Shown: positions 470 through 61,774, numbered from the stretch's first letter. The stretch: 64,000 nt of DNA from Escherichia coli (GCF_003334815.1 NZ_QOWO01000008.1), one strand, 5' to 3'. Program-made: numbers and translations. Notes: generated by a model not told the origin, from the letters alone.

Positions 470-1616
<1,147 letters not shown>

Positions 1617-1621
1617 TTACC

Positions 1622-2233
1622 TCATAACGCGGCGCGTAGGGCTTCGCGAATTAAAGTTTCACTGCTGGCGTCAGGGCGAGCGATTTTGCTCACCATGCGG
1701 CTTGCTTCTTGTGGTTTATAGCCCAGCGCCACCAGCGCGGCAACCGCTTCTTGTTCAGCATCGTCGGTCGCCGGGCTGGCAGGAGACGTGAGTACCAGGT
1801 CGGCGGCTGGCGTAAAGAGATCGCCATGCAAACCTTTAAATCGGTCTTTCATTTCAACAATCAAGCGTTCGGCGGTTTTTTTGCCAATACCCGGCAGTTT
1901 CACCAGTGCCCCCACTTCTTCACGCTCAACGGCATTAACGAACTGCTGCGCTGACATTCCGGAGAGGATCGCCAGCGCCAACTTCGGGCCGACGCCGTTG
2001 GTTTTGATCAACTCTTTGAACAATGTGCGCTCTTGTTTATTGTTAAAACCGTACAGCAGTTGCGCGTCTTCACGCACCACAAAGTGGGTGAAAACGATCG
2101 CTTCCTGACCCGCTTCAGGGAGTTCATAAAAACAGGTCATCGGCATATGCACTTCATAGCCTACGCCGCCCACTTCAATTAACACCAGCGGGGGTTGTTT
2201 TTCAATGATGATGCCTCTGAGTCTGCCTATCAC
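1622..2233 (-). CDS. ruvA: Holliday junction DNA helicase subunit RuvA
   Basis: 203 aa ORF immediately upstream of ruv[14 protein letters not shown]-terminus. Confidence 0.95.
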
Positions 2234-2282
2234 ATGACGCTCCTGCGTAATGAATCAAAGATAATGCTGTATGATAAAAAAA

Positions 2283-2302
2283 TGCTGGATAGATATCCAG
2301 CG
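2283..2302 (-). promoter_or_regulatory. LexA (SOS) box of the ruvAB operon
   Basis: Palindrome tgCTGGatagatatCCAGcg about 50 bp upstream of ruvA start; matches recalled ruvAB SOS box. Confidence 0.6.
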
Positions 2303-2507
2303 AAGGATGAAGAAAACTTGCGAGGTGTCTCGATGAACTGAAAAATGGCACAGTATAATTTATTCTACAGGTTATATTGGAAGCAAATATTTTAATATTA
2401 CATATTCAGTGAAGAAATGCGTAATAAAAATATACATTGCGCCTCCTGAAAAAATAAATTTTTTATGCTATTACGTATATTTGTATCTATTTCAATGGAA
2501 TGACAAC

Positions 2508-3110
2508 GTGAATATTAATTACCCTGCTGAATATGAAATTGGAGATATCGTCTTTACATGTATAGGTGCTGCCTTATTTGGTCAAATATCAGCTGCATCA
2601 AATTGCTGGAGTAATCACGTCGGGATCATTATCGGTCATAACGGTGAAGACTTCCTGGTTGCAGAAAGCCGGGTTCCCCTTTCAACCATCACCACGCTAT
2701 CTCGTTTTATTAAACGTTCGTCTAATCAACGCTATGCTATAAAGCGATTAGACGCTGGGCTGACAGAACGACAAAAACAACGAATTGTTGAACAGGTTCC
2801 CTCCCGGCTACGCAAACTTTACCACACCGGTTTTAAATACGAATCTTCGCGCCAGTTCTGTTCAAAATTTGTTTTTGATATTTATAAAGAAGCGCTATGT
2901 ATTCCGGTGGGTGAAATAGAGACGTTTGGAGAATTGTTAAATAGCAATCCGAATGCAAAACTCACTTTCTGGAAATTCTGGTTCCTGGGTTCTATTCCGT
3001 GGGAGCGTAAAACCGTCACGCCAGCCAGTTTGTGGCATCATCCGGGTTTGGTGTTGATTCATGCGGAGGGAGTGGAAACGCCTCAGCCGGAACTGACCGA
3101 GGCGGTATAA
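2508..3110 (+). CDS. yebB: Uncharacterized protein YebB (200 aa form, GTG start); six-frame ORF extends to 2409
   Basis: Translation [17 protein letters not shown]... matches YebB; AT-rich gene. Confidence 0.75.
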
Positions 3111-14696: not shown

Positions 14697-15532
<836 letters not shown>

Positions 15533-28979: not shown

Positions 28980-29006
28980 TTATCGGCAAGGAGGGGGGAA
29001 ACTTTA
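28980..29006 (-). promoter_or_regulatory. sigma28 (FliA) class 3 promoter of the tar-tap-cheRBYZ operon
   Basis: Minus-strand TAAAGTTT-N11-GCCGATAA, exact consensus. Confidence 0.8.
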
Positions 29007-29034
29007 TTGCTGATGCCACCCGCCGCGAAATTGA

Positions 29035-29064
29035 AATAAAAAACCCGATGCGCAGATCATCGGG
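29035..29064 (-). terminator. Rho-independent terminator after cheW
   Basis: cccgatgcgcagatcatcggg hairpin followed by T-run on minus strand. Confidence 0.7.
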
Positions 29065-29092
29065 TTCATTTCAATTGAGGAAATCGGGAGAA

Positions 29093-33522: not shown

Positions 33523-34101
33523 TTAAACAGCCTGTACTCTCTGTTCATCCAGCAGTTGTGGGATAATATCGGCAGGATTCTGGGAAAGTTTACGTCTTTT
33601 TACTGCCCGGGATGGCGGTTGACATAAGCTGCAGGCAAAGCTGCCAACAGGCTGGTGAGCGTGGGTAATAAAATTGCCGCCGCAGCAGTTGCAGCTGGAA
33701 AGTTGCAGTAATCCACTTTCAACAAACCGCACCAATGTCCAGGCACGGGTTAATGCCAGCAGTGGTCCTTCTTCTGCTTGTGGGCACTGTTCAAGGTATA
33801 AACGGTAGGCTTTGATCACCGCATCGACGCCATTACACAAACCGGTTTTCAGTAAAAACTGCCATGCATTACAGAACATCGAAGCATGAACGTTTTGTTC
33901 CCAGGTCATAAACCAGTCGGTTGAGAATGGCAGCATGCCTTTCGGCGGTGGGCTTCCGCGCAGTTCTTTATAAAGTTTTATCAGGCGTCCGCGACTTAAC
34001 TGTGTTTCGCTTTCCAGCATCTGCAAACGAGCGCCCAGGGTGATCAATTCCATTGCCAGCTGAATATCCCGCGCTTCCTGAACAATGCTTTTTTCACTCA
34101 T
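33523..34101 (-). CDS. flhC: Flagellar master regulator subunit FlhC
   Basis: 192 aa, [20 protein letters not shown]. Confidence 0.97.
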
Positions 34102-35668: not shown

Positions 35669-39021
<3,353 letters not shown>

Positions 39022-47295: not shown

Positions 47296-47382
47296 TGGTA
47301 CCCGGAGCGGGACTTGAACCCGCACAGCGCGAACGCCGAGGGATTTTAAATCCCTTGTGTCTACCGATTCCACCATCCGGGC
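47296..47382 (-). tRNA. leuZ: tRNA-Leu (anticodon UAA)
   Basis: 87 nt; reverse complement GCCCGGATGGTGGAATCGGTAGACACAAGGGATTTAAAATCCC...GGGTACCA. Confidence 0.93.
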
Positions 47383-47394
47383 TCGGGAAGAAAG

Positions 47395-47468
47395 TGGAGG
47401 CGCGTTCCGGAGTCGAACCGGACTAGACGGATTTGCAATCCGCTACATAACCGCTTTGTTAACGCGCC
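47395..47468 (-). tRNA. cysT: tRNA-Cys (anticodon GCA)
   Basis: 74 nt; reverse complement GGCGCGTTAACAAAGCGGTTATGTAGCGGATTGCAAATCCG...CCTCCA. Confidence 0.93.
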
Positions 47469-47522
47469 AAATTCTTCAGGCCTTTCAGCCAGACATCCGC
47501 TTGACGCCGATGTCTTTTAAAC

Positions 47523-47598
<76 letters not shown>

Positions 47599-57295: not shown

Positions 57296-57322
57296 TTATC
57301 GGCATGATTATCCGTTTCTGCA
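57296..57322 (-). promoter_or_regulatory. fliA promoter region (sigma28-type -10 GCCGATAA; -35 poorly matched)
   Basis: Minus-strand GCCGATAA at 57296-57303, about 25 bp upstream of fliA start. Confidence 0.4.
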
Positions 57323-57391: not shown

Positions 57392-57415
57392 GAAAAAACC
57401 CCGCCGGTGGCGGGG
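57392..57415 (-). terminator. Rho-independent terminator at the end of the fliC 3' UTR
   Basis: ccccgccaccggcgggg hairpin followed by T6 on minus strand. Confidence 0.7.
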
Positions 57416-57424
57416 AAGCACGTT

Positions 57425-57555
<131 letters not shown>

Positions 57556-57589: not shown

Positions 57590-59302
57590 TTAACCCTGCA
57601 GCAGAGACAGAACCTGCTGCGGTACCTGGTTAGCTTTTGCCAGCACGGAGTTACCTGCCTGCTGAATAATCTGCGCTTTCGACATGTTGGACACTTCGGT
57701 CGCATAGTCGGCGTCCTGAATACGGGACTGCGCTTCGGACAGGTTGGTAGTGGTGTTGTTCAGGTTGGTGACTGCGGAATCCAGACGGTTCTGCACGGCA
57801 CCCAGGGAAGAACGGAATTTGTCTACGGATGCGATAGCATCGTCCAGCGCTTTCAGCGGATCCGTGGTCGCTTCAGATTTACCTGTAGCTTCAGTGGTCA
57901 GAGAGCCGTCAGCCGCTTTATACAGAGCCGCGCCGTCATCATCCAGAATATTGCCGTTAGCAAATTCGTGATAAGTTTCTGTGACAGTCTTGTTGGCCGC
58001 AGTCGTCAGTTCACCCTCAGCACCAATATTTACGGTCGCTCCACCTGTAGTAGCAGTTACTGCACCATCAGCGGCAACGTCATAAGACTGTGCGCCGTTA
58101 GCTACGGTATAAGCCTGACCGGTTAACGCAGTGTTCATATCTTCGGCGGATACCGTCGCGCCCTTAATATCCACATTGTTGCTAACCTGGGTGAAGTCAA
58201 CGGTCATGCCGCTGCCGAAGGTAATCTTCGCATCAACTGCATCATGACCATTCGCACCGTTGAAAATACCGTCCAACGTTGCCGCGGCTGGGCCGCCGGC
58301 CTGGTTTTTCGTCAGGTTACCGTCAGCACCAATGTATAAAGCATCGCCATTAGTATCCGTCAGGGTACCATCGCTGGCAATTTTAACTTCCTGAGCGCTA
58401 CCACCGATGGAGATCTGAGCCGTGTTATCGCCGTTTGCTGCATAGGCTTTCAGAACATCAGCAACTTTAGTTGAGCCCGCAGTACCATCACCATTAGTAA
58501 GTGCGGTTGCGTCAAATGAATAAGACTTGCTGGTTGCGTTGTAGGTATATGCAGTAGAAGCCGCTACGCCTAACCCATTGTTTGTGCCAGCATAACCGCT
58601 AATAGTGCTGCCGCCACTAACGCTAGCCAGCACATCGGTAGCTGTTGCTGCATTAAAGGTAGTAACAGTAGATTTAGTCCAGGTGCTATTGCCACTGACA
58701 ACTGCACTTTGGGAGAAGCCCGCAGCGGTCAGATCTGCTTCAGTGGCTTTTGCATTATCAACAGCGCCTTTACCGTTGACGTTGAAGCTGGTCAGCTTCA
58801 GTGTAGAAGAGTCGATTTTTTTCAGGTCAATCGTGATGGTTTCACCATCATTTGCGCCCACCTGAATTTTCATTGAACCGTCTTTGGACAACACATTCAC
58901 GCCATTGAACTGGGTCTGACCAGATACGCGGTCAATTTCATCAAGACGAGATTTGATTTCGTCCTGGATGGAGTCCAGGTCAGAATCGGAGTTAGTACCG
59001 GTAGTGGCCTGAACCGTCAGTTCACGGATACGCTGTAAGTTGTTGTTGATTTCGGACAGCGCGCCTTCGGTGGTCTGCGCAACGGAAATACCGTCGTTGG
59101 CGTTACGTGCAGCCTGAGTCAGGCCTTTAATGTTAGAAGTAAAACGGTTAGCAATCGCCTGACCCGCGGCGTCATCCTTCGCGCTGTTAATACGCAAGCC
59201 AGAAGACAGACGCTCGATAGAACTCGACAGCGCAGACTGGTTCTTGTTGATATTATTTTGAGTGATCAGCGAGAGGCTGTTGGTATTAATGACTTGTGCC
59301 AT
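57590..59302 (-). CDS. fliC: Flagellin FliC (H-antigen), 570 aa allele with a non-K-12 central domain
   Basis: Conserved N-terminus MAQVINTNSLSLITQNNINKNQSALSSSIERLSSGLRINSAKDDAAGQAIANRF and C-terminus ...QVPQQVLSLLQG; central region differs from the 498 aa K-12 H48 flagellin. Confidence 0.95.
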   Translation of the reverse strand: MAQVINTNSLSLITQNNINKNQSALSSSIERLSSGLRINSAKDDAAGQAIANRFTSNIKGLTQAARNANDGISVAQTTEGALSEINNNLQRIRELTVQATTGTNSDSDLDSIQDEIKSRLDEIDRVSGQTQFNGVNVLSKDGSMKIQVGANDGETITIDLKKIDSSTLKLTSFNVNGKGAVDNAKATEADLTAAGFSQSAVVSGNSTWTKSTVTTFNAATATDVLASVSGGSTISGYAGTNNGLGVAASTAYTYNATSKSYSFDATALTNGDGTAGSTKVADVLKAYAANGDNTAQISIGGSAQEVKIASDGTLTDTNGDALYIGADGNLTKNQAGGPAAATLDGIFNGANGHDAVDAKITFGSGMTVDFTQVSNNVDIKGATVSAEDMNTALTGQAYTVANGAQSYDVAADGAVTATTGGATVNIGAEGELTTAANKTVTETYHEFANGNILDDDGAALYKAADGSLTTEATGKSEATTDPLKALDDAIASVDKFRSSLGAVQNRLDSAVTNLNNTTTNLSEAQSRIQDADYATEVSNMSKAQIIQQAGNSVLAKANQVPQQVLSLLQG

Positions 59303-59378
59303 GATTCGTTATCCTATATTGCAAGTCGTTGATTACGTATTGGGTTTCCACCCGTCGGCTCAATCGCCGTCAACCCTG

Positions 59379-59405
59379 TTATCGTCTGTCGTAAAACAAC
59401 CTTTA
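59379..59405 (-). promoter_or_regulatory. sigma28 class 3 promoter of fliC
   Basis: Minus-strand TAAAGGTT-N11-GACGATAA. Confidence 0.7.
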
Positions 59406-59497
59406 GAATTTTTTTCACAAACAGCCATTTTTTGTTAGTCGCCGAAATACTCTTTTCTCTGCCCCTTATTCCCGCTATTAAAAAAAACAATTAAACG

Positions 59498-59524
59498 TAA
59501 ACTTTGCGCAATTCAGGCCGATAA
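59498..59524 (+). promoter_or_regulatory. sigma28 promoter of the fliDST operon
   Basis: TAAACTTT-N11-GCCGATAA on plus strand, about 45 bp upstream of fliD. Confidence 0.75.
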
Positions 59525-59567
59525 CCCCGGTATTCGTTTTACGTGTCGAAAGATAAAAGGAAATCGC

Positions 59568-60974
59568 ATGGCAAGTATTTCATCGCTGGGAGTCGGGTCA
59601 GGCCTGGATTTAAGTTCAATCCTTGATAGCCTCACCGCCGCGCAAAAAGCGACGCTAACCCCTATTTCAAATCAGCAATCGTCGTTTACCGCTAAACTTA
59701 GCGCCTACGGTACGCTGAAAAGCGCGTTGACGACTTTCCAGACCGCCAATACTGCATTGTCTAAAGCCGATCTTTTTTCCGCCACCAGCACTACCAGCAG
59801 CACCACCGCGTTCAGTGCCACCACCGCGGGTAACGCCATCGCCGGGAAATACACCATCAGCGTCACCCATCTGGCGCAGGCGCAAACCCTGACCACGCGC
59901 ACCACCAGAGATGATACGAAAACGGCGATCGCCACCAGCGACAGTAAACTCACCATTCAACAAGGCGGCGACAAAGATCCGATTACCATTGATATCAGCG
60001 CGGCTAACTCGTCGTTAAGCGGGATCCGTGATGCCATCAACAACGCAAAAGCGGGCGTAAGTGCGAGCATCATTAACGTGGGTAACGGTGAATATCGTCT
60101 GTCAGTCACATCAAATGACACCGGCCTTGACAATGCGATGACACTCTCGGTCAGCGGTGATGATGCGCTACAAAGTTTTATGGGCTATGACGCCAGTGCC
60201 AGCAGCAACGGCATGGAAGTCTCGGTCGCCGCCCAGAATGCGCAGCTGACGGTCAACAACGTCGCCATTGAGAACAGCAGCAACACCATCAGCGACGCGC
60301 TGGAAAACATCACCCTGAACCTGAACGATGTCACCACGGGCAACCAGACGCTGACCATCACTCAGGACACCTCCAAAGCGCAAACGGCGATTAAAGACTG
60401 GGTGAATGCCTATAACTCGCTAATAGATACCTTCAGCAGCCTGACCAAATACACCGCCGTAGATGCGGGAGCTGATAGCCAAAGCTCTAGCAATGGCGCA
60501 CTGCTCGGCGACTCCACGCTGCGGACGATTCAGACGCAGTTGAAGTCGATGCTGAGTAATACCGTCAGTTCTTCCAGCTATAAAACGTTGGCGCAGATTG
60601 GTATCACGACCGATCCCAGCGATGGCAAACTGGAACTGGATGCCGACAAACTCACCGCTGCACTGAAAAAAGATGCCAGCGGCGTAGGTGCATTGATTGT
60701 TGGCGATGGTAAAAAAACCGGCATCACAACCACCATCGGCAGCAACCTGACCAGTTGGCTTTCGACAACGGGCATTATTAAAGCCGCTACCGATGGCGTT
60801 AGTAAGACTCTGAATAAATTAACTAAAGACTACAACGCCGCCAGCGATCGCATTGATGCGCAGGTCGCGCGCTACAAAGAACAATTTACCCAACTGGACG
60901 TTTTAATGACCTCGTTAAACAGCACCAGCAGCTACTTAACGCAGCAGTTCGAAAACAACAGTAATTCCAAGTAA
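59568..60974 (+). CDS. fliD: Flagellar filament cap protein FliD
   Basis: 468 aa, MASISSLGVGSGLDLSSILDSL. Confidence 0.95.
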   Translation: MASISSLGVGSGLDLSSILDSLTAAQKATLTPISNQQSSFTAKLSAYGTLKSALTTFQTANTALSKADLFSATSTTSSTTAFSATTAGNAIAGKYTISVTHLAQAQTLTTRTTRDDTKTAIATSDSKLTIQQGGDKDPITIDISAANSSLSGIRDAINNAKAGVSASIINVGNGEYRLSVTSNDTGLDNAMTLSVSGDDALQSFMGYDASASSNGMEVSVAAQNAQLTVNNVAIENSSNTISDALENITLNLNDVTTGNQTLTITQDTSKAQTAIKDWVNAYNSLIDTFSSLTKYTAVDAGADSQSSSNGALLGDSTLRTIQTQLKSMLSNTVSSSSYKTLAQIGITTDPSDGKLELDADKLTAALKKDASGVGALIVGDGKKTGITTTIGSNLTSWLSTTGIIKAATDGVSKTLNKLTKDYNAASDRIDAQVARYKEQFTQLDVLMTSLNSTSSYLTQQFENNSNSK

Positions 60975-60998
60975 TCAATATTCATCGGGAGACAGGTC

Positions 60999-61409
60999 AT
61001 GTACGCGGCAAAAGGCACCCAGGCCTATGCACAAATTGGCGTCGAAAGCGCCGTAATGAGCGCCAGCCAGCAGCAGCTGGTCACCATGCTATTTGATGGA
61101 GTGCTGAGCGCACTGGTTAGAGCGCGCCTGTTTATGCAGGACAACAATCAGCAAGGCAAAGGCGTCTCTTTGTCAAAAGCGATCAACATCATTGAGAACG
61201 GACTGCGGGTGAGTCTTGATGAAGATAGCAAAGACGAATTAACCCAAAACTTGATTGCTCTTTATAGCTATATGGTCAGGCGTTTGCTGCAAGCCAATTT
61301 ACGCAACGATGTCTCCGCAGTCGAAGAAGTGGAAGCATTAATGCGCAATATTGCCGATGCCTGGAAAGAGTCGTTACTCTCCCCTTCTTTGATTCAGGAC
61401 CCAGTCTGA
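60999..61409 (+). CDS. fliS: Flagellin-specific chaperone FliS
   Basis: 136 aa. Confidence 0.95.
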
Positions 61410-61774
61410 TGAACCATGCACCGCATTTGTATTTCGCCTGGCAACAACTCGTCGAAAAAAGCCAGCTCATGTTACGCCTGGCAACGGAAGAACAATGGGA
61501 CGAACTCATCGCCAGCGAAATGGCGTATGTGAATGCGGTGCAGGAGATAGCACACCTGACTGAAGAGGTTGCCCCGTCCACCACGATGCAGGAGCAGCTC
61601 CGCCCGATGCTGCGCCTGATTCTCGACAACGAAAGCAAGGTAAAGCAGTTATTACAGATTCGTATGGATGAACTGGCGAAACTGGTCGGTCAGTCATCGG
61701 TGCAAAAATCGGTGTTAAGTGCCTATGGCGATCAGGGCGGCTTTGTGCTGGCTCCGCAAGATAACTTCTCGTGA
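61409..61774 (+). CDS. fliT: Flagellar chaperone/anti-FlhDC factor FliT
   Basis: 121 aa, start overlaps fliS stop (TGATG). Confidence 0.95.

Follow-up and report, generated by a model that had tools for sequence, protein, structure and literature searches.

The 64,000-nucleotide stretch analysed here (hereafter the window) is a segment of the E. coli chromosome spanning flagellar regions II and IIIa, with its genes in the order tar-tap-che, flhBAE, motAB-cheAW, flhDC, otsBA, fliAZ, fliC, fliDST and amyA. The flagellin gene fliC and the fliD-fliS-fliT operon are transcribed divergently from a spacer of exactly 265 bp (59303–59567), and the features of this spacer are listed in Table 1 together with the related promoters found elsewhere in the window. 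The spacer is identical to that of K-12 at 263 of its 265 nucleotides. The first difference is at 59418, which is a C in the window and an A in K-12. The second is at 59517, where the fliD -10 octamer begins; the window and O157:H7 have the consensus G at this position, giving GCCGATAA, whereas K-12 strains have an A, giving the poorer match ACCGATAA. An A at the equivalent position is also seen in five other species, mostly Proteus. A search against Rfam returned no RNA family within the 265-bp spacer, and two 58-codon open reading frames that cross it were set aside by judgement as mechanical artefacts of open reading frame listing.

The fliC allele differs from the H48 type of K-12, encoding a protein of 570 aa versus 498 aa. 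It is an uncommon flagellin allele: of 5426 complete E. coli genomes, only 67 have its variable region (57900–58900) at ≥99% identity, and several of the listed genomes that share it are pig or poultry isolates. Downstream of fliC, within the fliA-fliC intergenic region, there is a strong terminator-like hairpin (57415..57399, minus strand), which is probably the fliC/FliX 3′ end, and the same region contains an ES036/REP-like Rfam match at 57484–57525. Elsewhere in the window we note a full-length match to the MicL sRNA (14698–15005, minus strand, 381.9 bits in Rfam) and three tRNA genes at 47299–47598 on the minus strand.

Table 1. Coordinates of the fliC-fliD spacer, its flanking genes and related promoters, counted from the first nucleotide of the window. 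Conservation values are from an alignment of 33 enterobacterial sequences where so marked; FAT, fold above threshold in K-12 FliA ChIP-seq.
Feature	Position	Strand	Sequence	Remarks
fliC (flagellin)	57590..59302	-		570 aa; open reading frame and flagellin annotation of orthologous loci
fliD-fliS-fliT operon	59568..61774	+		fliD 59568-60974, fliS 60999-61409, fliT 61409-61774; open reading frames and annotated orthologous loci
fliC sigma-28 -35 octamer	59398..59405	-	TAAAGGTT	In K-12 FliA ChIP-seq motif; 95% conserved (33 sequences)
fliC sigma-28 -10 octamer	59379..59386	-	GACGATAA	Same as K-12 FliA ChIP-seq motif; 94% conserved (33 sequences)
fliC sigma-28 start	59371..59372	-		8th/7th nt after -10 octamer; transferred published distances
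fliC 5′ untranslated leader	59303..59372	-		69-70 nt; ATG-to-start distances 70 and 69
A-tract (fliC strand)	59406..59416	-	GAAAAAAATTC	Directly upstream of fliC -35; 87% conserved across genera; possible UP element
Candidate FlhDC box	59438..59479	+	GTCGC-CG-AAATACTC-N11-CCTTATTC-CCG-CTATT	Mid-spacer; 18 of 26 positions of an inverted-repeat consensus
Minor fliD-oriented start	59489	+		3 reads, K-12; possible -10 TATTAA at 59476-59481
Candidate sigma-70 -10	59498..59503	+	TAAACT	Inside fliD sigma-28 -35 octamer; 100% conserved
fliD sigma-28 -35 octamer	59498..59505	+	TAAACTTT	100% conserved (33 sequences)
Upstream fliD starts	59510..59513	+		Distance 58 in EDL933, 55 in K-12 (RegulonDB)
fliD sigma-28 -10 octamer	59517..59524	+	GCCGATAA	K-12 has ACCGATAA; 99% conserved (33 sequences)
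fliD sigma-28 start	59532	+	A	8th nt after octamer; 36-nt leader; EDL933 Cappable-seq
fliA starts	57300 (class 2); 57288/57289 (sigma-28)	-		Sigma-28 start is 8th/7th nt after octamer
fliA sigma-28 promoter	57296..57322	-		Weak -35; overlaps fliA class 2 promoter; K-12 ChIP-seq data
tar-tap-cheRBYZ sigma-28 promoter	28980..29006	-		0 mismatches; 28-mer identical to K-12 FliA ChIP-seq site
motAB-cheAW sigma-28 promoter	33566..33592	-		Inside flhC; 2 mismatches; identical to K-12 ChIP-seq site, FAT 101
otsA-internal FliA-binding motif	36798..36824	+		3 mismatches; identical to K-12 ChIP-seq site, FAT 2

Each side of the spacer contains a sigma-28 promoter motif. Relative to the published consensus, TAAAGTTT-n11-GCCGATAA (PMC2859248), the fliC motif (TAAAGGTT-gttttacgaca-GACGATAA, reading 59405..59379 on the minus strand) has two mismatches and the fliD motif (TAAACTTT-gcgcaattcag-GCCGATAA, 59498–59524 on the plus strand) has one, and both have the 11-bp spacing. 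The preliminary description had reported this divergent pair, and both its sequences and its positions are exact; conservation, ChIP-seq in K-12 and mapped start sites all agree with it, as set out below. Its statement that the two promoters lie about 100 bp apart is a fair one, with 92 bp separating the two -35 octamers.

A scan of the 64-kb window for sites with no more than three mismatches to the consensus recovered five, compared with 0.57 expected and a maximum of three in any of 100 shuffles, and all five match FliA ChIP-seq sites of K-12 (Table 2 of Fitzgerald et al. 2014, PMC4183435). They include the tar promoter, which had been described as an exact consensus match and is one. The further proposal that the fliC, fliD and tar promoters delimit the class 3 regulon in the window fails on two counts. 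First, the window also contains the motA, fliA and otsA-internal sites (Table 1), the last of which is weak in K-12 and without associated regulation (PMC4183435). Secondly, the tar promoter points leftwards, away from fliC, and so does not form an outer boundary. The strand opposite this promoter carries an Rfam match to the C0465 sRNA (28996–29073, plus strand, 111.6 bits), which overlaps the -35 end of the promoter.

A position-weight matrix, which had been put forward as a check on these promoters, was trained on 20 K-12 FliA sites, all of them outside the window. It bears out the tar (26.6), fliD (20.3), motA (15.9) and otsA (14.9) sites but does not separate the fliC site from background; with a score of 9.0 the latter ranks 19th in the window, and the mean best score in shuffled sequence is 14.6. 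Because its score falls within the shuffled range, the fliC site is inseparable from chance by the matrix alone, and what identifies it is the combination of its conservation, its ChIP-seq signal and the mapped start sites. The same score is what could be cited for the view that both motifs arose by chance, the consensus being degenerate and the intergenic DNA AT-rich, although the excess of recovered over expected consensus sites already argues in the other direction.

The functional data for the two promoters come from K-12, from O157:H7 or from experiments in vitro, and are carried over to this strain by sequence, which is identical or nearly so. The fliC 28-mer is exactly that of the K-12 FliA ChIP-seq site, and the fliD 28-mer is one base off (G for A). 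In K-12 the FAT values are 110 for fliC, an occupancy among the highest in the genome, and 43 for fliD, and the RNA-seq value for fliC drops from 2319 in the wild type to 11 in a fliA deletion (PMC4183435). In a microarray comparison, deletion of fliA lowered fliC 78.8-fold and fliD 9.9-fold (PMC1935009), and in published work the fliC promoter was transcribed and footprinted in vitro by purified sigma-28 holoenzyme. These data indicate that expression of fliC depends almost entirely on its sigma-28 promoter.

Mapped transcription start sites provide a second line of evidence. The distances from ATG to start are 70 (fliC), 55 (fliD), and 19 and 30 (fliA) for K-12 in RegulonDB, and 69 (fliC), 58 and 36 (fliD), and 18 and 30 (fliA) in EDL933 Cappable-seq data (Table S5, PMC10469882; the columns were interpreted with the help of that paper's methods and of how the numbers in each row add up). 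As a check on the distance convention we used the fliA start of Kim 2012, at distance 30, whose upstream sequence ends in ATGCCG and thus corresponds to 57300 in the window. Since the O157:H7 spacer is also 265 bp, without insertions or deletions relative to the window, the distances transfer directly. With these transferred positions the sigma-28 starts are the seventh or eighth nucleotide past the -10 octamer at fliA, fliC and fliD alike, and the expectation that starts would be found 7–10 nt beyond the -10 elements is borne out for fliC and fliD, at 7–8 nt. The only fliD start in RegulonDB, at distance 55, does not fit the sigma-28 -10, so that the evidence for the sigma-28 start of this gene consists of a single Cappable-seq dataset together with motif geometry.

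The transcript starting at 59371/59372 has several conserved features in and around its leader. The first ten or so nucleotides of the mRNA (59364–59373, CGCCGTCAAC on the plus strand) are 90% conserved, and a block at 59342–59353 that is conserved across genera is a small hairpin, GGGU-GGAA-ACCC; folding of the fliC and fliD leaders found no significant structure (z = -1.7 for fliC, and 0.0 and +0.5). Directly upstream of the fliC -35 is an A-tract, which is a possible UP element.

Within E. coli the spacer falls into two sharply distinct allele classes, one ≥95% identical to the window (3187 genomes) and one about 70% identical (1315 genomes, including ST131 strains), and 912 of the 5426 genomes have no match to the spacer. 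The second class has a 19-bp deletion at 59417–59435 and matches at just 8 of the 22 bases in the two 11-nt promoter spacers, with all 32 octamer bases kept. A cross-species scan used one genome per species and was anchored on nucleotides 1–20 of the fliC coding sequence, and was thus blind to the promoters; it gave 74 loci. Among flagellin starts with enough upstream sequence, drawn from many genera, 55 of 76 carry both divergent motifs at no more than two mismatches, for which the probability by chance is approximately 2e-4 per 700 nt. Of 36 loci checked, 35 have a fliD homologue as the divergent gene, and 92–94 bp is the commonest distance between the two -35 octamers. The divergent pair is thus conserved through much of the Enterobacterales with a typical gap of 92–94 bp.

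In an alignment of 33 enterobacterial sequences the octamers are 97% conserved, compared with 50% for the 11-nt spacers and 66% for the rest of the intergenic region, and in 20,000 random draws of four 8-mers the conservation never equalled that of the octamers. Together with the high ChIP-seq occupancy at fliC and the fit of the start positions to the motifs, these observations refute the reading of the motifs as chance matches, to which we assign a negligible probability.

The preliminary description also had sigma-28 driving both fliC and fliDST. Both promoters are indeed present, but sigma-28 is neither the only nor the main source of fliDST transcription: the K-12 RNA-seq value for fliD is 633 in the wild type, 356 in a fliA deletion (a difference that is not significant) and 3 in an flhD deletion (PMC4183435), and there is a second start at 59510–59513. 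FlhDC was detected at the K-12 fliD promoter by ChIP-qPCR, and the authors credit FlhDC-dependent promoters with most of the transcription of dual-regulated genes under the conditions used (PMC4183435). Taken further, these data could mean that the fliD sigma-28 motif binds FliA but adds little or nothing to expression, with fliDST being effectively a class 2 operon and its class 3 promoter vestigial; the fact that the sole RegulonDB start differs from the sigma-28 start is in keeping with this. We regard it as very improbable, for four reasons. First, all 16 octamer bases of the fliD motif are 99–100% conserved across some 30 species, whereas the 11 nt between the octamers vary. Secondly, EDL933 has a capped 5′ end at distance 36, where it is expected for the sigma-28 promoter. 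Thirdly, overexpression of fliA in an flhD deletion returns fliD to wild-type levels or higher (PMC4183435). Finally, the 9.9-fold reduction of fliD in the microarray comparison is from a different study (PMC1935009).

The starts at 59510–59513 lie upstream of the sigma-28 -10 octamer and consequently need a separate promoter. The hexamer TAAACT is 7–10 nt upstream of them and, judged from these start sites, is a candidate for the -10 of a class 2 fliD promoter. A scan of the spacer with the sigma-70 consensus found no canonical promoter, as would be expected for one that depends on an activator. A candidate FlhDC box, the boundaries of which are inferred, occupies the middle of the spacer; it was recognised by comparison with an inverted-repeat consensus that reportedly derives from Stafford 2005, and it matches at 18 of 26 specified positions versus 16.0 +/- 1.0 in shuffles, or about 2 SD, a match that is weak alone. 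An FlhDC half-site consensus is also quoted in PMC1935009. Conservation across genera extends to the core blocks of the candidate box, GAAATAC and TTATTC. The box spans -72 to -31 relative to the 59510 start, and the best box upstream of fliA lies at -73 to -31 of the class 2 start of that gene. The 59510–59513 start fits an FlhDC-dependent sigma-70 promoter.

A different account of this start is that its mapping is imprecise, that it is a processing product, or that it belongs to some other promoter or sigma factor, and that the true class 2 promoter is elsewhere, for example at 59489. The weakness of the box match, and the indirect derivation of both the box and the -10, leave room for such an account, and Kim 2012 does report a K-12 start at 2001817, 79 nt upstream of fliD, which corresponds to 59489 (PMC3415461). 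However, that start is represented by only three reads, obtained from a stock with barely any flagellar gene expression and with no sigma-28 starts in its start-site table (PMC3415461), and its location just downstream of the candidate FlhDC box is a geometry unsuited to activation. A start assigned to fliC in the same dataset, with two reads, was rejected as implausible; it sits inside fliD (PMC3415461). The upstream fliD start, by comparison, is placed at distance 55–58 by two independent sources, one of them Cappable-seq, a method that enriches triphosphate 5′ ends (PMC10469882), and the candidate box mirrors the fliA box in its position. We therefore think it unlikely that the 59510–59513 start is anything other than that of the class 2 promoter. 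The K-12 FlhDC data, the upstream start and the geometry of the candidate box together identify fliDST as a dual class 2/class 3 operon, and the class 2 promoter accounts for most of its transcription under standard conditions.

We conclude that the 265-bp spacer is very probably a shared control region for divergent late genes, with fliC read leftwards, fliDST read rightwards, and fliDST under dual control. The following sequence of events would account for the observations. Upon completion of the hook-basal body FlgM would be exported, and the FliA (sigma-28) so freed would bind core RNA polymerase. The FliA holoenzyme would then recognise the two outward-facing promoters in the spacer, with TAAAGGTT-N11-GACGATAA giving a fliC mRNA from 59371/59372 with a leader of 69–70 nt, and TAAACTTT-N11-GCCGATAA giving a fliDST mRNA from 59532 with a leader of 36 nt. 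At an earlier stage fliDST would also be transcribed from an FlhDC-activated sigma-70 class 2 promoter starting at about 59510–59513, with TAAACT in the sigma-28 -35 as its probable -10 and 59438–59479 as its probable FlhDC box. Apart from two single-nucleotide differences from K-12, the locus is the fliC/fliDST control region already known, and nothing in it is new. It has little significance beyond correct annotation, as the promoters concerned are textbook members of the class 3 flagellar regulon. What is gained here is base-level coordinates for all of the promoter parts in this strain, the corrections concerning dual control of fliDST and the additional FliA sites of the window, and the cross-genus footprint of the divergent pair.

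Several comparisons with known systems can be made. The fliC and fliDST FliA promoters of K-12 (PMC4183435; RegulonDB) are the same locus, with the same divergent layout and the same dual control of fliDST by FlhDC and FliA. Salmonella enterica has the same gene order, a divergent sigma-28 pair and a dual-regulated fliDST, as in the window. Control of the Salmonella enterica operon from both class 2 and class 3 promoters was reportedly described by Kutsukake & Ide 1995 and by Wozniak, Chevance & Hughes 2010, as cited in PMC4183435. The fliD motif of S. enterica subsp. arizonae and diarizonae, TAAACTTT-N11-GCCGATAA, is identical to that of the window, whereas the fliC promoter of Salmonella and Citrobacter, TAAAGTTC-N11-GCCGATAC, has its mismatches at other positions and is 69 nt from the ATG rather than 76 nt. 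A text search of the literature did not find a leader length for Salmonella fliC.

The arrangement at fliD also resembles that of other flagellar operons. Overlapping class 2 and class 3 promoters are said to have been reported for fliAZY and fliLMNOPQR by Liu & Matsumura 1996 and are also given by Fitzgerald et al. 2014 (PMC4183435), and in these operons, as at fliD, FlhDC-dependent sigma-70 and sigma-28 promoters lie within the same few dozen bp. The details differ, in that the class 2 and sigma-28 starts are 11–12 nt apart at fliA in the window and about 22 nt apart at fliD, and in that the sigma-70 -10 of fliA (GATAAT) falls within the sigma-28 spacer whereas the candidate one of fliD coincides with the sigma-28 -35. 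A more distant parallel is the sigma-D promoter of Bacillus subtilis hag, which reportedly has an upstream UP element (Fredrick et al. 1995). Like fliC, hag is a flagellin gene driven by a sigma-28-family factor and has an A-rich tract upstream of its -35, comparable to 59406–59416, although this is a resemblance only.

The fliC promoter retains one or two mismatches to consensus in all 55 of the loci with both motifs, with TAAAGGTT/GACGATAA in 35 of them and TAAAGTTC/GCCGATAC in 11, the latter being the Salmonella/Citrobacter group. Many genera share these non-consensus bases as well as the probable overlap of sigma-70 and sigma-28 elements at fliD, which hints at selected tuning. We speculate, with considerable reserve, that the non-consensus bases may be selected, that sigma-70 and sigma-28 may compete at fliD, and that a sub-consensus fliC promoter boosted by an UP element may fire last and hardest, such that the pair would effect a hand-over. 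At least part of this idea has probably been covered in the Salmonella literature.

Two further observations emerged from the genome comparisons. In strain 23CRST049 (NZ_AP045822.1) an IS66-family element with ISEc43-like transposase genes is present in the fliC-fliD spacer (1458–3084 of the extracted locus), inserted at a distance of some 170 nt from the start codon of fliC, such that the fliC promoter is kept and the DNA that normally bears the fliD promoters is replaced. Enterobacterial-type flagellin starts were also seen in contigs labelled as a Collinsella MAG, Staphylococcus lugdunensis and a Devosia MAG (L059, L060, L075 and L031), and these probably represent contamination or mis-binning in public assemblies; the promoter pair in one of them, L059, is identical to that of E. 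coli.
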